This document shows positions 10,181-26,857 of a stretch of DNA of 27,825 bases, piece by piece. The stretch comes from Planctomycetota bacterium. GTDB lineage: Bacteria; Planctomycetota; MHYJ01; WSZJ01. The translations under genes were made by a program, and so were the position numbers. The notes below the pieces were generated by a model. It did not search any database. It saw only the letters and a program-made list of their open reading frames with translations, and was not told the origin of the DNA. The first letter of the stretch is position 1. Each line of letters begins with the position of its first letter. Where the stretch lies: NCBI GenBank assembly GCA_038060895.1, contig JBBTCT010000004.1, positions 1-27,825 on the forward strand. Reading direction: 5' to 3'.

Positions 10181-12043
10181 TTGCCGCAACCCCGCCGAGT
10201 CAGCCCTGGGCGGAGCACTCCGTCCCTCCTGACTCTCCCCGCGAACGCACTTCGGGTCGCGTTCCGCGAGGGATATGGGTTCAAGGAATTCCAGCGCGAC
10301 CTCCTGGCGGGCGTCGTGGTCGGCATCGTGGCGCTCCCGTTGGCCATGGCCCTCGCCATCGCCGTCGGCGTCCCGCCCCAGTACGGCCTCTACACCGCCG
10401 TCGTCGCCGGATTCCTCGCGGCACTCCTCGGCGGCTCGCGCACCCAGGTCACAGGGCCCACCGCGGCGTTCATCGTCATCCTGGCGCCGATCTACGCGAA
10501 GTTCGGCATGGCCGGACTGCTCATGTCCGGGCTCCTGGGCGGCGTGATCCTGCTCATCATGGGCATCGCCCGGCTGGGGAAGTTCATCGAGTTCATCCCC
10601 TACCCGGTCACCACCGGGTTCACTGCAGGAATCGCCACCGTCATCGCCACCCTCCAGGTCAAGGACGTCTTTGGCCTCCAGCTCACCTCGAGCCCTGACC
10701 ATTTCTTCGAACGCCTCGGCGCCTATTGGCACGCACGCGGATCGTTCTCATGGTGGGAACTCGCCATCGCCGCCCTGACCCTCGCCATCCTCGTCCTCTT
10801 CCCGAAATTCGTGACCCGTAAAATCCCCGCGCCCCTCGTCGCCATCCCGTTCGCAGCCGTGGTCGCCTGGCTCCTCAAGGGCCACGTCTCCGGATTCGAC
10901 GTCGCCACCATCGGCTCCCGCTTCAAGAGCGTCGTCGATGGCATCGAAATCCGCGGCATCCCGCGCCTGCCGCCAATGCCCCTCTGGCCGCCCCTTCAGC
11001 CCGGACCCGGAGGCGAAGCGCTGAACCTGCTCGATTACGACACCTGGCGGCAGCTTCTGCCCGGCGCCTTCGCCGTCGCCATGCTGGGAGCGATCGAGTC
11101 GCTGCTGTCGGCCGTGGTCGCCGACGGCATGGCCCAGACCAAGCACGACCCCGACTCCGAACTGTTCGGCCAGGGGATCGCCAACATCGTCTGCCCGTTC
11201 TTCGGCGGCATCCCCGCGACCGGGGCGATCGCCCGAACGGCGACCAACATCCGCTTCGGCGCCTACTCGCCCATCGCCGCCATGATCCACGCCGTCACCA
11301 TTCTCGTCGCAATCCTCGCCCTCGCGCCGCTCGTGGCCTACCTCCCCATGGCCGCCCTCGCCGCCCTCCTTCTCCTCGTCGCCTGGAACATGGCCGAGGC
11401 CAAACACTTCGTCCATATCCTCCGCACGGCGCCGCGCGCCGACGTCGCCGTCCTGCTCGTCTGCTGGTCCCTCACGGTTACCTTCGACATGGTCGTCTCC
11501 GTCACCGTCGGCTTCGTCCTCGCCGCCATCCTCTTCATGCGCCGCATGGCCGAAATCACCCAGTACGGCTTCATCCAGGGCGCCGAACCCTCCCAGACCG
11601 GAGTCCTCCCCCCCGGAGTCGTCGTCTATTCCATCAACGGCCCTCTTTTCTTCGGCGCCGCGGAACGCGCCATGGGCGCCCTGGGCGAAATCGCCGACTC
11701 CGCAAAGGCCGTCGTCTTCCGCCTGAAGAACGTCCCCGCCATCGACGCCACCGGCCTCGTCGCGCTGGAGAGCGCGCTCGCAAGGCTCAAGAAGCGCAAC
11801 ATCCTGGCGGTTCTCTCCGCCGTTCCGCGCGGGACCATGGCTACGCTGATGCGCGGCGGCATCCGCCGGGAGGCCGGAAAGCTGGCGTACTGCGCGACCG
11901 TGGAAGAGGGAATCAAGGTGGGCGGTGAATTCGCGAGCGGCGCGGTCCCGGTGCCTCTGCAGTCGCAGGAAAAAGTGGCCCACGGCGCGACGAAAGTCCA
12001 GTTCGAATCGATCGCCGAGCACCTTGACGAGCCGCGGAGATAG
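10181..12043 (+). CDS. SulP/SLC26 anion transporter with C-terminal STAS domain (DauA/YchM-like)
   Basis: RDLLAGVVVGIVALPLAMALAIA, GGSRTQVTGPTAAF, AIESLLSAVVAD, PATGAIART, GPLFFGAA. Start uncertain (TTG 10181). Confidence 0.93.
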   Translation: MPQPRRVSPGRSTPSLLTLPANALRVAFREGYGFKEFQRDLLAGVVVGIVALPLAMALAIAVGVPPQYGLYTAVVAGFLAALLGGSRTQVTGPTAAFIVILAPIYAKFGMAGLLMSGLLGGVILLIMGIARLGKFIEFIPYPVTTGFTAGIATVIATLQVKDVFGLQLTSSPDHFFERLGAYWHARGSFSWWELAIAALTLAILVLFPKFVTRKIPAPLVAIPFAAVVAWLLKGHVSGFDVATIGSRFKSVVDGIEIRGIPRLPPMPLWPPLQPGPGGEALNLLDYDTWRQLLPGAFAVAMLGAIESLLSAVVADGMAQTKHDPDSELFGQGIANIVCPFFGGIPATGAIARTATNIRFGAYSPIAAMIHAVTILVAILALAPLVAYLPMAALAALLLLVAWNMAEAKHFVHILRTAPRADVAVLLVCWSLTVTFDMVVSVTVGFVLAAILFMRRMAEITQYGFIQGAEPSQTGVLPPGVVVYSINGPLFFGAAERAMGALGEIADSAKAVVFRLKNVPAIDATGLVALESALARLKKRNILAVLSAVPRGTMATLMRGGIRREAGKLAYCATVEEGIKVGGEFASGAVPVPLQSQEKVAHGATKVQFESIAEHLDEPRR

Positions 12044-12193
12044 GTGGCCGTATCCGAGGCCGTTTCCGCGAGATCTGCCTTCATCCGCGTATACGACCCC
12101 CCATCTCCATTAATTTCGTGAACATTCCCCGCATTTCAGACGATTCATTCTGTGGGTTCGTCGTCCCCGCAACCGCCCCTTTCCAGAGGCCCC

Positions 12194-12865
12194 ATGCCCC
12201 TCACCCCCGCCCACAGACACCTCAAGCACGCCCGCGCGCACTACTTCGACCGCGAATTCCCCGACGCGGACCGCCTGGCCTCCGCTTCCATCGACCTCGA
12301 CCCCTCCCTCGTCTCCGCCTGGGCCCTCCGCGGCCGCGCCCGCCGCGACGCCGGCAACCCCGACGCCGCCTGGAACGACTTCACCCGCGCCCTCGCCCTC
12401 GACCCCGCCTGCTTCACCACACGCAGCTCCCGCGCCTGCCTCGCCTTCGACCAGGGCGTGACGGAAGACGCCCTCGCCGATTTCGACCGCGCCCTCGCGG
12501 ATCGCACCGCCGGCCCCGACGACTACAACCGCCTCCGCATCTGGCTCTGCCGCGCCCGCCTCGGCAACGAACACGCCGCCTCCCGCGAACTCCGCACCTG
12601 GCTGCGCGCCTCCCCCTGCGCTTCCACCTGGACCTGGGCCATCGCCGAGACCCTCTGGCGCGAGAAGCGCCCCTCCGCGCTCCTCGAGGCCGCCACCAAC
12701 GACGCCGAACGCTGCGAAGCCGGCTTCTGGGCCGGCGAGCGCCTCCTCCTCGACCACGACCGCCCCGCGGCGAAGCGGGCTTTCCGCCTCGCGGCCGTAA
12801 GCCCCCTCTGGCGCTTCACGGAGAAGCGGAGCGCAGAGGCGGAGCTGAAGCGGCTCGGGGCGTAA
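12194..12865 (+). CDS. TPR-repeat protein
   Basis: AWALRGRARRDAGNPDAAWNDFTRALALDP and ALADFDRAL; GAGG upstream of the ATG. Confidence 0.75.
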   Translation: MPLTPAHRHLKHARAHYFDREFPDADRLASASIDLDPSLVSAWALRGRARRDAGNPDAAWNDFTRALALDPACFTTRSSRACLAFDQGVTEDALADFDRALADRTAGPDDYNRLRIWLCRARLGNEHAASRELRTWLRASPCASTWTWAIAETLWREKRPSALLEAATNDAERCEAGFWAGERLLLDHDRPAAKRAFRLAAVSPLWRFTEKRSAEAELKRLGA

Positions 12866-12869
12866 GGGG

Positions 12870-13310
12870 CTACTTCTTCGTCGCGTCCAGCCCCTTCTGC
12901 AGCAGCGCTTCGACGTCCTCCGCGTCCGGCCCCGTCTCGCTCCCGATCAGCGACCCGTCCGGCTTCAGCGCGGCGATCGACGGCACGCCTTTGACCTTGC
13001 ACGTCGCCCAGATCGCCTGTTGCCCGGCGTCGTCCGGCTTGCCCCCCGCACCCAGCGACACCTTCACCCGCGCGCAGACATACCCCTTCAGCCGCCTCTG
13101 CATCGGTTCGTCCGTGAGCTCGACCTCGAGCGCGATGCACGCCCCTCAGTCGTCCGACCAGAACTCCACGAAGAGCGGCTTGTTTTCCGCCTTCGCCTGC
13201 GCGAGCGCGGCGGTGGCGTCGACGGCGAAGGGAATGTCGCCGATGCGGCCCGCCTTCCTCTCGCAGGCGACAAGGGCGATCACGGCAGTCAGGGCCAGCA
13301 GTCGCTTCAT
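12870..13310 (-). CDS. Predicted selenoprotein: thioredoxin-fold lipoprotein with UxxC motif (146 aa, Sec55)
   Basis: GGAGG RBS; MKRLLALTAVIALVAC lipobox; ..AKAENKPLFVEFWSDD-TGA(13148-13146)-GAC continues in frame into ORF 12870..13103, which has the cis-Pro motif VKGVPS. Confidence 0.88.
13099..13139 (-). promoter_or_regulatory. Candidate bacterial SECIS element
   Basis: After the UGA: GGGGCG UGCAUCG C GCUCG-AGGU-CGAGC UCACGGACGAAC CGAUGCA. The G-containing apical loop begins 19 nt after the UGA. Confidence 0.65.
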
Positions 13311-13532
13311 GGGAGCCTCCTAACTCTGATGTAACCGGGGCCCGCCGCTTCGTTTTCTCTCACTCAGCATAAGCAAACCGCTTCCTCCCATCTCCAGCCA
13401 AGCCTACACGCAGTCTGCGGAAGCGCGACTCGCGCGTTTTTAGCGCACCGTAAACCGTTTCCCTTGTTAGATTCTTCGACTTCTTCCCCCGCGGCGCTCC
13501 GTCCTGAGCGAGCGAAGCGAGTCGAAGGGAAG

Positions 13533-13625
13533 GGGAGCGGATACGGTCCTGGTGGCCGTCCTGGACTTCAAATCCGGTGTACCCTCCACAAGAGGGTAGG
13601 TCGGTTCGATTCCGATGCGCTCCCG
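13533..13625 (+). tRNA. selC: tRNA-Sec (anticodon UCA)
   Basis: Acceptor GGGAGCG/CGCTCCC; D stem ACGGTC/GGCCGT; anticodon arm CTGGA-CTTCAAA-TCCGG; long variable arm TACCCTC/GAGGGTA; T arm GTCGG-TTCGATT-CCGAT; G discriminator; CCA not encoded. Confidence 0.93.
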
Positions 13626-13626
13626 T

Positions 13627-13725
13627 CTCGAATTGGCGAGGTCCGTTTGTAAAGCGCGCCGGCCGTCGCACTTACGGCCGCGCGCCGGACCGCCGCGCTT
13701 CACAAACGGACCTCGCCAATTCGAG
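13627..13725. repeat. 99 bp inverted repeat immediately 3' of tRNA-Sec
   Basis: CTCGAATTGGCGAGGTCCGTTTGTaAAGCGCG ... CGCGCTTcACAAACGGACCTCGCCAATTCGAG (32 bp arms, 1 mismatch). Confidence 0.85.
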
Positions 13726-20493: not shown

Positions 20494-20907
20494 TCAGGGT
20501 TTGAGCACCTTCTGCGTCTCCTCGTTGTTCCGCAGCTTCAGGGACGTCTCCTTGCCGTCGGCCTGCAGGATCGTGTGCGTCGTGTCGGAGTCGCCGAGGA
20601 GCATGAGGCCCGAGCCGTCGACGGAGGTCGTCAGCTTCACGCGCGGTTTTCCGTCGGGGGTGATCAGCCGGAAAATCACCGTCTCGGGATAGCCCGTCGT
20701 GCCATCGGGCATCTTGTACGTCGCGTTCGCCGGCTCGACTTTCATCTGGACCCGAAGCCGCCCCTGGTCATCCACGATCTCGAGCCCGCGCCCGCGGAGC
20801 ATCGGCGCGTCGTCCTCCGCGTGGGCTTTCTGGCTCGGCGCCGCCTGGTACGCGAGACACCCGAGGTTGAAGACGGTGAGCGCCCAGAGAACGCGGTTCG
20901 ATTTCAT
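20494..20907 (-). CDS. Exported hypothetical protein
   Basis: GAGGAGG RBS; N-terminal hydrophobic segment; LRGRGLEIVDDQGRLR beta-rich body. Confidence 0.75.
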   Translation of the reverse strand: MKSNRVLWALTVFNLGCLAYQAAPSQKAHAEDDAPMLRGRGLEIVDDQGRLRVQMKVEPANATYKMPDGTTGYPETVIFRLITPDGKPRVKLTTSVDGSGLMLLGDSDTTHTILQADGKETSLKLRNNEETQKVLKP

Positions 20908-21061
20908 GATTTCCTCCTCGATAGCGGGTTGTGCAGGAGACGGGCTGGCAGGGCTGCGCGTTAACGGAAATCCGCTTTCGCTGAAACCTGATCCCGTTCA
21001 CCAACTTCTCATTTCCGCTTCACTTCAGCATCATCCGCGCAAGCGCAGAATTCCTTCCACG

Positions 21062-22348
21062 ATGCGCGCAAGATTCCTGACCTATCGGTCGCTGGTCGCG
21101 TTCACCTGCCAGACCCCGGTGTTCGCCCTGTTTTATTTGTCCCGCGGCTTGGACTACGGCGACCTCCTGCTCCTGACGCTGGCCTTCGCCGCGTCCAAAA
21201 TGGTGTGCGACGTTCCCTCGGGCCTCTTCGCCGACCGATTCGGCCGCAAGCCCGCGATTCTCGTGCGCGTCGGGCTCGAAGCGCTGTCCGTCGCCCTCCT
21301 CTTCTCGGACAGTTTCCTGGCGTCGGCGATGCTGGGCGGCGCGGCCGTCGCGTTCAGCGCCGGCGCGGAACAGGCGCTCGTGTATGAATGGGAAGGCCCC
21401 GCGGCGTTCGGCCGCGTCTTCGGGCGCGTTTCCTTCTGGAGCTGCGTCTCGACCGCGATCGCTTCCGTCGCGGGAGGTGCCCTCGCTTTCGCCGGCTTCG
21501 GCTGGGTCTACACCCTCCGTCTCGCCGTCCTGGCGGCGGCCGGCGGCGTCGCGCTGACGTTCGTTGAGCCGCCGCGCCCCGTGCTGAAGCGGGCTGCCTC
21601 TCCGGTTCCGCGCCCCTCCGCCGGCCTTGCCCGGACCCTGGCCTTCGCCGGAATCCTCGGCGCCGTCCACGTGGCCGCGCTTCAGCTGCAGCAACCGTTT
21701 TTCAGGTCGGCCGGCATCCCCCTGGTTGCGTTCGGCGCGCTCTACGTCCTCCTCCAGCTCGCCACCGCGGCCGGCGCCCGCTTCTCGCACCGGCTTCCGG
21801 GTCCGCTCGGCTTCGTCGCCGCCGCGAGCGCCGTGGGATTCGCCCTCATGGGCGGCTCCGCCCCGTGGATCGGCGTCGCCGCCGTCTTCCTGCTGAAGTT
21901 CGCCCACGGCGTGTCGCTTCCCGCCTTCGGCTCCGCGCTCAATGCCCACGCGCCGCCCTCCGCCCGCGCCACGGCCATTTCCTTCCGCTCGATGTTCGAG
22001 GGCTGCGCCCTCCTCGCGGTCGTCCCCCTCATGGGTTGGACAGCCGACACCCTGTCGCTCAACGCCGCTTTCATCCTCGCCGCGCTTCTCGTCCTCCCCT
22101 CGTTCCTGCTCCTGGAGTCTGCACCTATGAGAAAAGCCCTTCGCATTCCGTTCGCCTGCCTCGTTCTCGCGCTCGCGGGGTGTTCGAACATCCCCTACTA
22201 CGAGAAGAAGGACCTGGACCGCCGGATCATGCAGTTCGACCCCAACGAGCTCGAGATCTCGTACCAGAACAAGGTCAACTTCTCCCGCGAAGTCAGCGGC
22301 GGAAGGCCCGGTCACTCCGCGGGAGGCGGCTGCGGATGCGGAAACTGA
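21062..22348 (+). CDS. MFS transporter continuing in frame into a DUF4266 domain
   Basis: MFS motif A (PSGLFADRFGRK), about 12 hydrophobic segments, ARATAISFRSM; no stop before 22348. Confidence 0.75.
   Translation: MRARFLTYRSLVAFTCQTPVFALFYLSRGLDYGDLLLLTLAFAASKMVCDVPSGLFADRFGRKPAILVRVGLEALSVALLFSDSFLASAMLGGAAVAFSAGAEQALVYEWEGPAAFGRVFGRVSFWSCVSTAIASVAGGALAFAGFGWVYTLRLAVLAAAGGVALTFVEPPRPVLKRAASPVPRPSAGLARTLAFAGILGAVHVAALQLQQPFFRSAGIPLVAFGALYVLLQLATAAGARFSHRLPGPLGFVAAASAVGFALMGGSAPWIGVAAVFLLKFAHGVSLPAFGSALNAHAPPSARATAISFRSMFEGCALLAVVPLMGWTADTLSLNAAFILAALLVLPSFLLLESAPMRKALRIPFACLVLALAGCSNIPYYEKKDLDRRIMQFDPNELEISYQNKVNFSREVSGGRPGHSAGGGCGCGN
22127..22348 (+). CDS. DUF4266-family small lipoprotein (internal in-frame start)
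   Basis: GGAG then ATG 22127; MRKALRIPFACLVLALAGC lipobox; PYYEK..L...MQFD; SRE..SGG; C-terminal GGGCGCGN. Confidence 0.8.
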   Translation: MRKALRIPFACLVLALAGCSNIPYYEKKDLDRRIMQFDPNELEISYQNKVNFSREVSGGRPGHSAGGGCGCGN

Positions 22349-23478
22349 TCCTCGCTCTCATCCTTCTCCCCGCCCTCGCACGGGCCCAGGAGAAGCCGGC
22401 TGAAGCGGAGGCCCCGGCCAAAAGAATCGAAGCCGAAACGTCGCGAAGCTATCTCCGCTTCGCATTCAATTTCTACAAGCAGAAAGACGGCGAGGGGAAT
22501 CCCAATCTCAAGGAGGACATGACGGTGCTCGAACCCCAGATCCTCCTCGGCCTCGGACTGGGCGAAAAACTGTCTCTGAACCTGAAACTGCAGGCGGACA
22601 TCATCACGGCCGCCTCCGTGGACAAGAAGTACCGCTTCCTCCCGGGGACGCAGTCCGGCGCGTCGGGGGACAAGTTCTTCGGCGCGGAGGGCGGGTTGTT
22701 CTACGCGTGGAGCGACCAGGTCAAGACGGGAATCGGTGTCTCGACCTCCACCGAATATGACTACAAGTCCCGAGGCATCAACGCCCGCTTCATTTATGAC
22801 ACACCCGACAAAAACGACACCTTCCTGATCAAGGCGTCCGCATTCTTCGACACGCTGGACATCATCAAGTTCGACGGAAGCGAAGACGGGACCGAGTCGC
22901 GGAATTCGTACAGCCTGGGGCTCGGGTGGACGCACGTCCTCGGGCGACGAACGCAGATGACGCTCAATTACGACCTGACGATCCAGCGCGGGTTCCTCGC
23001 GACCCCCTACAACTCCGTCTTCATCCGGGGCAAGGAGTACGAAGAAGTGCTTCCAAGCTCACGAATGAGACACAATCTTTTCGGGAGAGTCCGGCACTTG
23101 CTTCTTGACGACCTCGCCGTCGAACCGGGGATCGGTGTCTACGCCGACGACTGGGGCGCGCTGGCCTTCAACCTCGAGGTGCGCGCGTTCTGGGAGGCCA
23201 TTCCCGGCGTCCTGATCGTCCAGCCGTGGTACCGCTTCCATGGCCAGACCGAGGTGGACCAATTCGTGGACACGTCTGCGTCCAGCCTCCCGAAACACCG
23301 GACCCAGGACAGCGATCTCGATGCGTTCGACAGCCACACGTTCGGCCTCAAGCTCGTGACTCCGCACGTCAAGATCTTCGGCATCGACACGGAGTTCGAG
23401 CTCGGAGCGGACTACTCGATCCGAAGCGATTTCCTGGATTCCTACAGCGTCACGTTCGGCGTCATGGTGAGGTTCTGA
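22336..23478 (+). CDS. DUF3570-family outer-membrane beta-barrel-like protein
   Basis: Signal peptide; DIITAAS, SGAS, STEYDY, GFLATPY, E.LP.SR.R, YADDWG, DSDL; C-terminal Phe; position between DUF4266 and TlpA/ApbE. Confidence 0.8.
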   Translation: MRKLILALILLPALARAQEKPAEAEAPAKRIEAETSRSYLRFAFNFYKQKDGEGNPNLKEDMTVLEPQILLGLGLGEKLSLNLKLQADIITAASVDKKYRFLPGTQSGASGDKFFGAEGGLFYAWSDQVKTGIGVSTSTEYDYKSRGINARFIYDTPDKNDTFLIKASAFFDTLDIIKFDGSEDGTESRNSYSLGLGWTHVLGRRTQMTLNYDLTIQRGFLATPYNSVFIRGKEYEEVLPSSRMRHNLFGRVRHLLLDDLAVEPGIGVYADDWGALAFNLEVRAFWEAIPGVLIVQPWYRFHGQTEVDQFVDTSASSLPKHRTQDSDLDAFDSHTFGLKLVTPHVKIFGIDTEFELGADYSIRSDFLDSYSVTFGVMVRF

Positions 23479-24920: not shown

Positions 24921-26306
24921 TTACCTGAACGCCGCGACGATCGCGGCCACGGCTTCCTCGTCCTCGCCGTCCTGCATCGTTCGCGGATCGAGCAGCACGC
25001 GGCCCTTGTGCACGCGCGCGAAAACGGGAGGCTCGCCGAGGCGCAGGCGCGTAATCAGCACGTCGGCGCCGCGCGAGCCCGGATCCACCGCGACGACCTT
25101 CGTCTTGAGGTTCTGCCCCGGCGTCGATCCGCCGCCGATCTGCGACTCCTCGTCCCAGACCTCGGAGTCGATCTTCGCCTTCACCAGCGCGCGCGACATC
25201 ACCGTGGCGCGCTTCTCGATCTCCCCCAGCTTCAGGTTCATCATGCGAAGCGTCGGCACGGCGTCCTCGACCGTGTCCGGATTGAGATAGAGCCGGAGCG
25301 TCGCTTCGAGCGCGACAAGCTGCAGCTTGTCGGGGCGGACGGCGCGGAAGAGCGGATGCCTGCGGCAGAGAGCCACGGGTTCGAGCTTGCCGGCGATCAT
25401 CCCGGCCTGCGGTCCGCCAAGAAGCTTGTCTCCTGAGATGCAGGCGAGGTCCGCGCCTTGCGCGACGGAGGCGGCGATCATCGGTTCGGGCGCGATGCCG
25501 TACTTCGCGACGTCGAGAAGCGCGCCGCTTCCGATGTCGTCCATGACGCGCAGGTTGTGTTTCTTCGCGAGCGCGACCAGTTCTTCCAGGGACGGCTCTT
25601 CCACGAATCCGACGACCGCGAAGTTGCTCCGGTGGACGCGCATGAGAAGCGCCGTTTCGGGCGTGATCGCCTTTTCGTAATCCGCGATGCGCGTCTTGTT
25701 CGTGGTTCCGACTTCGACCATCTTGCATCCCGACATTTTCATGACGTCCGGCACGCGGAAGGCCCCGCCGATCTCGACGAGCTGGCCACGCGAGACAATG
25801 ACTTCCTTCCCGGCAGCGAGCGCCGCCAGGCAAAGCATCGTCGCCGCGGCGTTGTTGTTCACGACGGTCGCGGCGGGCGCGCCGGTCAGGCGCTCGACAA
25901 GTTTCGCGACGTGGCGCTCGCGGTGCGCGCGCTCCGACGTCTCGAGGTCCACCTCCAGCAGGTTGTACCCGCGGTTCTCCGAGACCAGCGCGTCGAGCGC
26001 CGCCTTCGGCATCACGGCGCGGCCAAGGCCCGTGTGCAGGATAATCCCTGTCGCGTTGATCACGCGGCGCAGGCCGGGACGCGAAGCGCCCGCGAGGATC
26101 GCCCCGGCGCGGGCGAGGATGGCCGGCGCGGTCAGGGCCTCCTCGGAGACGCCGTTCTCGCTCGACTTGATCTGCGCTCGCAGCCCGTCGATGACCCCGC
26201 GAACGGCTTCCGTGACCAATTCGCGGCCGTGGGTTTTCGAGAGCGCGTTTGCCTCGCTGGACTCGAGCAACGCGTTGACTTGCGGCAGCTTCCGGAGGAG
26301 GGACAT
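24921..26306 (-). CDS. selA: L-seryl-tRNA(Sec) selenium transferase
   Basis: RRVINATGIILHTGLGRA, VVNNNAAA, SRGQLVEIGGAFRVPDVM, EVGTTNKT, SGDKLLGGPQAG (PLP Lys). Start MSLLRKLPQV at 26306. Confidence 0.96.
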   Translation of the reverse strand: MSLLRKLPQVNALLESSEANALSKTHGRELVTEAVRGVIDGLRAQIKSSENGVSEEALTAPAILARAGAILAGASRPGLRRVINATGIILHTGLGRAVMPKAALDALVSENRGYNLLEVDLETSERAHRERHVAKLVERLTGAPAATVVNNNAAATMLCLAALAAGKEVIVSRGQLVEIGGAFRVPDVMKMSGCKMVEVGTTNKTRIADYEKAITPETALLMRVHRSNFAVVGFVEEPSLEELVALAKKHNLRVMDDIGSGALLDVAKYGIAPEPMIAASVAQGADLACISGDKLLGGPQAGMIAGKLEPVALCRRHPLFRAVRPDKLQLVALEATLRLYLNPDTVEDAVPTLRMMNLKLGEIEKRATVMSRALVKAKIDSEVWDEESQIGGGSTPGQNLKTKVVAVDPGSRGADVLITRLRLGEPPVFARVHKGRVLLDPRTMQDGEDEEAVAAIVAAFR

Positions 26307-26356
26307 GCGGCTGATTATGCCAAATCCGCCGCAGGGCGGGTCGTCGGGCCGCCTTC

Positions 26357-26857
26357 CTACGACACCGAAGCGTCCACTTTTGGCGGCCGCGAGTCGGTCT
26401 TCGCTGACGCGTAATCGTCCTCCTCGAACGCTTCGTCGTCGCCGAAGAGCTCGACGGGCTTGTAACCCGGCAGCTTCGACTTCTCGAGTTCCTCGCCGAA
26501 CGCTTTGAGAATCGCACCCGCCAGCTCTTCGCGCCCCGCCGCATGAATCGGGTGCGCGACGTCCGCGTACAGCTTCTGCCGCCCCTCCTCCGTCACGATC
26601 TTCCGCTTCGCCGGCAGCCGCCCGCCGCAGTCGTTGCAGAAGCTCGCGCGCAGGTGGTTCTTGCCGCCGCACTTGGGGCAGCGATCGGTGAGTTTCCTTG
26701 ACGGCATCGCGACGAACGGGCCGCGTGAGCCGTCGATGATCTTGATGTCCCGGATGACGAGCGCGTTCTCGAGCGTGATCGAGCAGAACCCGCGCAACTT
26801 GTCGTTCGGACGGCTGACGAGCTTGACCCGCACCTCGGTGATCTGCATGGTGTCCAT
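26357..26857 (-). CDS. spoVG: SpoVG family nucleic-acid-binding protein with Zn-ribbon insertion
   Basis: MQITEVRVKL, VIRDIKIIDG..GPFVAMPSRK, CPKC..CNDC insertion, YADVAHPI. Confidence 0.9.
   Translation of the reverse strand: MDTMQITEVRVKLVSRPNDKLRGFCSITLENALVIRDIKIIDGSRGPFVAMPSRKLTDRCPKCGGKNHLRASFCNDCGGRLPAKRKIVTEEGRQKLYADVAHPIHAAGREELAGAILKAFGEELEKSKLPGYKPVELFGDDEAFEEDDYASAKTDSRPPKVDASVS

Follow-up and report, generated by a model that had tools for sequence, protein, structure and literature searches.

A gene of 146 codons in a Planctomycetota bacterium very probably encodes a genuine selenoprotein, with selenocysteine (Sec) predicted at residue 55. It lies in a 27,825-nucleotide stretch of DNA that was analysed as a whole and is called the window here (GenBank assembly GCA_038060895.1, contig JBBTCT010000004.1). 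The reading frame opens with the ATG at 13310 and closes with the TAG at 12872-12870, on the minus strand, and a lone internal TGA at 13148-13146 forms codon 55. Translated through this codon, the product is a protein of 146 residues, MKRLLALTAVIALVAC...FVEFWSDD-U-GACIALEVEL...KGVPSIAAL...GLDATKK, in which U stands for Sec. The fuller reading, in which this selenoprotein is also exported, anchored by a lipid and reliant on Sec55/Cys58 chemistry, is likely as well. The gene carries these features:

12870..13310, minus strand: predicted selenoprotein coding sequence, 146 codons plus TAG stop, with Sec at codon 55
13316..13320, minus strand: Shine-Dalgarno sequence GGAGG, by direct reading, with the ATG 5 nt downstream
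13263..13310, minus strand: lipoprotein-type signal peptide (MKRLLALTAVIALVAC), with the presumed lipobox L-V-A-C and Cys16
13146..13148, minus strand: in-frame TGA, read as U55; kept in 5 of 5 orthologues and aligned with Cys in 70 unique homologous loci
13137..13148, minus strand: active-site motif U55-G-A-C58, with the TGA as its first position
12981..12983, minus strand: codon of Pro110, invariant in 39 of 39 aligned sequences, presumed cis-Pro

A mechanical list of open reading frames breaks this gene in two, at 13146-13310 (54 aa) and 12870-13103 (77 aa). A first-pass annotation of this DNA had already pointed to the split when it proposed a hidden selenoprotein here, and the frame, GGAGG, start codon, internal TGA and tail motifs that it described are all present in the sequence. 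The locus is one 146-residue protein and not two fragments; the gene is real and is misread by standard gene calling. Public annotation misses it too, as had been anticipated. When a large protein database was searched with a query in which Cys replaced Sec, it returned three matches, two of them Cys homologues from Verrucomicrobiota and the third a truncated orthologue, present as an 87-residue C-terminal fragment labelled 'hypothetical protein'. The annotation can thus be corrected to a single gene where two fragments, or a truncated 'hypothetical protein', are now called.

The TGA is conserved among close relatives, with Cys taking its place in distant ones. Matches were found in 23 of 41 related genomes (the gene's own included), with an in-frame TGA at 53 of the 57 matched places. 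An orthologue is present in four of the seven other genomes of the genus; identity is 72-81%, the TGA again stands in a DDUGAC context, and similarity extends to both sides of it. Counting the gene's own genome, five of five orthologues have the TGA in this context. In the remaining three genomes (G005-G007, 81-87% complete) the query found paralogue-level matches only and no orthologue. A contig from a second sample (12700-13627) and one from an independent study (12840-13653) both cover the gene and differ from it at no letter. Since the TGA recurs in a second sample, in a different study and in four genomes of the genus, an assembly error is excluded, which settles the sequencing-error doubt raised in the first-pass annotation. 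A 223-nt contig from an RNA library, covering 12966-13188 and thus the TGA with no differences, may stem from contaminating DNA, and because DNA can occur in such libraries it is weak evidence of transcription.

Further afield, a scan of a genome collection yielded 80 loci from Planctomycetota, Verrucomicrobiota, Armatimonadota, Acidobacteriota, Bacteroidota and other phyla. Over all fetched loci, 99 alignments span residue 55, of which 29 have TGA and 70 have Cys at this column. With duplicates removed, 24 unique Sec loci stand against 70 unique Cys loci, the latter being a biased sample, since peptide patterns from the query served to retrieve them. The TGA aligns with the first Cys of CxxC in these homologues, the nucleophilic position to which it had been assigned from the sequence alone. 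Only three columns are invariant in a 39-sequence alignment: U/C55, C58 and P110. An additional 150 genomes, sampled evenly from the phylum, gave 16 with a match at E <= 1e-5. Matches with a TGA occurred in four of the 16, one of which held a TGA-free match as well; in the other 12 every match was TGA-free, so both forms exist within the phylum.

The genome holds the machinery for Sec. Three genes of the window are needed to describe its setting:

13533..13624, plus strand: tRNA-Sec (selC), Rfam RF01852, 71.7 bits against a gathering score of 47
24921..26672, minus strand: selA (selenocysteine synthase), given as the longest open reading frame, ~11.6 kb from the selenoprotein gene
10181-12043, plus strand: SulP transporter gene, preceding a TPR gene

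The tRNA-Sec gene is divergent from the selenoprotein gene and begins ~220 bp from its start codon. ARAGORN calls a tRNA-SeC with anticodon tca here and beside the gene in four of four orthologous loci, in the same arrangement. The selA gene matches TIGR00474 with 541 bits at 24942-26297, and both Pfam models, SelA and Se-cys_synth_N, match it; its true start is probably internal to the longest open reading frame. The gene for SelB is on contig C1 of the genome and that for SelD on contig C2 (G000:C2:48628-49548, 364 bits). The presence of selB and selD had been named as a check on the selenoprotein proposal, and both are found, along with selA and tRNA-Sec. The selD gene has one in-frame TGA of its own, so selenophosphate synthetase is probably a selenoprotein here. 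Within the window, tRNA-Sec and selA are ~11 kb apart. As selB and selD are on contigs other than the one with selA and tRNA-Sec, the Sec genes are not in one operon.

The selenoprotein gene is monocistronic and converges on the TPR gene (12152-12865, plus strand). Past the tRNA-Sec gene, the minus strand carries genes for an S9-type hydrolase, a ferredoxin and an M16 peptidase; no gene for a redox partner was seen among the adjacent genes. The stretch as a whole was found in groundwater and aquifer metagenome runs. Directly upstream of the tRNA-Sec gene, 35 nt at 13496-13530 (plus strand) reach a summed contig depth of 345-405, against 5-8 in the flanks, because many unrelated metagenome contigs carry this short sequence with 1-3 mismatches. 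Six copies occur in the genome itself (three forward, three reverse, <=3 mismatches), compared with none for a reversed-pattern control, and the sequence has no notable fold. We considered it as a shared regulatory element of the system and rejected this, as it is absent from the four orthologous loci; it looks like a short dispersed repeat. Elsewhere in the window, the longest open reading frames at 20699-22348 (MFS/DUF4266) and 21865-23478 (DUF3570), both on the plus strand, overlap by ~480 nt in different frames and are followed by an ApbE gene.

Recoding of a UGA in bacteria is directed by a SECIS hairpin within the coding region, and a candidate follows the TGA:

13105..13145, minus strand: putative bacterial SECIS, with the apical hairpin GCUCG-AGGU-CGAGC at 13131-13118 and its loop at 13126-13123

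This hairpin has a 5-bp stem and a 4-nt AGGU loop that starts 19 nt past the UGA. The bacterial SECIS model, as set out in the portion of PMC13188914 compared here, has an apical loop of 3-9 nt with a G in its first two positions, an upper stem of 4-16 bp, 16-37 nt from UGA to loop and a minimum free energy of <= -7.5 kcal/mol. Loop, stem and spacing of the candidate fit these values, and the energy fits only with an extended stem: the strict 5-bp stem, at -6.2 kcal/mol, does not reach the threshold of -7.5, while the extended fold, with a lower stem, gives -15.0 to -18.3 kcal/mol in the five orthologues. Hairpins of this quality are not rare in such DNA. Within the orthologues, 12-47 of ~127 codon positions have an equally good one, as do 16% of in-frame positions nearby. 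Plain folding of the 71 nt that surround the TGA did not outperform shuffled sequences (z = 0.73), and we therefore did not count folding energy by itself as evidence; at gathering thresholds Rfam found only the tRNA-Sec over the window and no SECIS family.

In DNA of 67% GC, energy alone is weak evidence for a SECIS, and the case rests mainly on conservation. No other invariant run in the gene is as long as the 18 nt of the TGA context or the 17 nt at the hairpin. Among columns where a synonymous change could occur, codons are identical at 10 of 12 in residues 52-66, against 31 of 69 elsewhere (one-sided Fisher p = 0.014, with the 52-66 window picked after viewing the alignment). Across the family, the hairpin recurs at the same distance with differing stem sequences. 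A strict hairpin of <= -7.5 kcal/mol is present at 15 of 24 Sec loci versus one of 70 Cys loci. The GC content of the Cys homologues is lower (0.55 vs. 0.65), and when each locus was set against nearby positions in a local GC-matched control, the median fraction scoring as well was 0.087 for the Sec loci and 0.48 for the Cys loci.

These observations bear on two other accounts of the internal TGA. It might terminate translation, in a nonsense pseudogene or through an assembly error, with the part downstream never made; gene calling does split the frame here, and the orthologue in the public database is indeed a C-terminal fragment. We consider this account extremely improbable, given an identical TGA in five genomes and in independent-study contigs, a complete Sec machinery, and invariant Cys58 and Pro110 residues that both lie beyond the TGA. 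Purifying selection also acts on the part downstream of the TGA, where all 10 orthologue pairs have a dN/dS of 0.25-0.51; upstream of it the values are 0.18-0.29. The other account accepts that the UGA is read through but has Trp, Cys or another residue inserted in place of Sec, by near-cognate decoding or a changed code. Ordinary bacterial tRNAs do read through UGA at low levels, which lends this account some footing. Of 14 genes in the window with Pfam support, however, five use TGA as their stop codon and none has it internally, so that a genome-wide change of code is not the explanation. Furthermore, 70 homologous loci have the nucleophilic Cys of a CxxC motif at this position, a tRNA-Sec gene is adjacent, selA, selB and selD are present, and a hairpin stands at SECIS spacing. 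Insertion of a residue other than Sec is thus very unlikely.

On our preferred reading, codon 55 would be decoded as Sec by SelB with Sec-tRNA(Sec), directed by the in-gene hairpin whose AGGU loop begins 19 nt after the UGA. The product would be a precursor with a lipoprotein signal peptide. Its N-terminus combines a basic n-region with a hydrophobic core and with L-V-A-C, which we take, by eye, to be a lipobox, in agreement with the first-pass annotation. Cys16, followed by (E/S)RKAGRIG, is kept in five of five orthologues, and genes for Lgt and LspA are present in the genome. The protein is probably exported, lipidated on Cys16 and tethered to the membrane, facing the periplasm.

The thioredoxin fold that had been proposed for the mature domain is seen in both profile and structural comparisons. 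Pfam PF13899 (Thioredoxin_7) scores 33.9 bits against a cut-off of 27; PF13098 (18.9 vs. 27) and PF00085 (21.1 vs. 23.5) remain below theirs. An AlphaFold2 model from the 39-sequence alignment has a pLDDT of 88.6 and a pTM of 0.82, and it places U55 between a strand at residues 46-51 and a helix at residues 56-64, with residues 1-20 disordered and of low pLDDT. Pro110 is presumably the conserved proline of the thioredoxin fold, in the cis-Pro role. Foldseek ranks the C-terminal (gamma) domains of DsbD (PDB 2fwe, 2fwf, 1uc7, 4ip1) highest, at 28% identity; for DsbD gamma and DsbH the E-value is ~6e-7 and the TM-score by target 0.64-0.70. They are followed by a Xylella disulphide isomerase, a Bacteroides exported cytochrome-c-biogenesis-related protein, AGR2 and DsbH. 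A profile of the family matches 2kuc, DsbH (2ju5) and DsbD-gamma at E-values of about 1e-25 to 1e-23, with 2e-23 to 5e-23 for DsbD-gamma and DsbH. A Thioredoxin_7 / DsbD-gamma type is thus predicted for the mature domain, with helix 1 beginning at the U55-G-A-C58 motif.

In this active site, Sec55 would be the nucleophile that attacks a disulfide or an oxidised thiol of the substrate, and Cys58 would resolve the mixed selenenylsulfide. We favour a role on the reducing side of the envelope, in which the protein may be recharged by a membrane electron carrier of the DsbD/CcdA type, because of its likeness to DsbD-gamma and DsbH. The same selenoprotein could instead act as an oxidant or isomerase, like DsbA or DsbC, or as a reductant of peroxides or sulfenic acids, and not as a disulfide reductant fed by DsbD. 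The fold and the UxxC motif leave the direction unfixed. The best profile and fold matches include PDI and 'disulphide isomerase' entries, and the neighbouring genes, for the TPR protein, the SulP transporter and the S9-type hydrolase, place no redox partner next to it. Against this, the closest structures by identity are DsbD-gamma (28%), along with DsbH, and a DsbD_TM gene exists in the genome, on another contig (G000:C14:123686-124321). DsbD-gamma and DsbH are reductant-side proteins. This alternative direction is a substantial possibility, a little short of an even chance; between a reducing-side, DsbD/CcdA-recharged role and an oxidase, isomerase or peroxide-reducing one, our reasoning finds the case about evenly balanced. 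The evidence for the DsbD link and for the direction of electron flow consists of fold similarity and of the presence of that gene elsewhere in the genome.

The reducing-side selenoprotein that we prefer is one of several related genes. Three further Thioredoxin_7-like genes of its own genome carry an in-frame TGA within a W/G-U-x-x-C motif:

G000:C39:13119-13514: further Thioredoxin_7-like gene with in-frame TGA
G000:C35:20498-20815: further Thioredoxin_7-like gene with in-frame TGA
G000:C34:94793-95134: further Thioredoxin_7-like gene with in-frame TGA

One of the three is small and lipoprotein-like, and one has a long C-terminal extension. Up to seven matches per related genome point to a lineage-specific expansion. 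A distant member (L017, at G015:C177:12312-12560) has two in-frame TGAs three codons apart, F-R-U-E-K-U-K-D-C, and may therefore have a double-Sec active site. The gene and its paralogues suggest that selenium is put to work in the cell envelope of groundwater planctomycetes. It has been proposed that fdhA, found beside sel genes in Proteobacteria, is the selenoprotein that maintains the Sec trait there. A comparable and more far-reaching idea here would be that an expansion to at least four copies of envelope-located, DsbD-gamma-like Sec thioredoxins in groundwater Planctomycetia has produced a selenium-based periplasmic redox network, and that the need for this copy, kept beside tRNA-Sec throughout the genus, maintains the Sec trait. 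Taken jointly, these propositions are doubtful, and we offer them as speculation.

Among bacterial selenoproteins, the commonest kind is a thioredoxin-fold protein with UxxC and with Cys homologues, a well-known kind to which the product of this gene belongs. The catalogued UxxC proteins, in the portion of PMC13188914 compared here, are thioredoxin (PF00085), the 'thiol:disulfide interchange protein' (PF13098), an isomerase-like group (cd02966) and redoxin (PF08534). With these the protein shares the thioredoxin fold, Sec as the first residue of UxxC, the existence of Cys homologues and a SECIS, here a candidate one, in the coding region. Unlike them, it has PF13899 as its best Pfam family, is of lipoprotein type with a single domain, and comes from Planctomycetia; its PF13098 score of 18.9 bits against 27 does not place it with the 'thiol:disulfide interchange protein'.

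No NCBIfam family reaches its cut-off, the best being NF041199 (29.7 bits vs. 300) and then TsoB (28.4 vs. 805). NF041199, a Trx7/PDZ (seleno)protein family, likewise has a Sec-carrying domain of Thioredoxin_7 type. It differs in that only positions 6-61 of its 390-position profile are matched and that the PDZ domain is absent here, as judged by Pfam; its motif, according to the same portion of PMC13188914, is CxxU and not UxxC. DsbD gamma and DsbH (2ju5), the best structural matches, are likewise periplasmic thioredoxin folds with CxxC. They use Cys, whereas Sec is predicted here, and DsbD gamma is fused to a membrane domain, whereas this is a free-standing single-domain protein of 146 residues and lipoprotein type. 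The similarity to DsbD is therefore one of fold, and with no fused transmembrane domain the protein is not itself a DsbD.

The first-pass annotation had suggested an undescribed subfamily. That the subfamily is undescribed is plausible, because no NCBIfam cut-off is reached and PF13899 has no occurrence in the text of the 2026 inventory (PMC13188914); the kind of protein to which it belongs is well known. It may stand under a broader name in BSepDB (PMC13326102, seen here in part) or in the supplementary tables of the selenoproteome inventory. A literature search for Planctomycetota together with selenoprotein found no relevant paper, although one paper on planctomycetes from a red alga, in the portion compared here, reports selenoproteins. 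The finding leaves the understanding of selenoproteins unchanged. To the thioredoxin folds that use Sec it adds a Thioredoxin_7, DsbD-gamma-like predicted lipoprotein, from a phylum on whose selenoproteins the literature searched says little.
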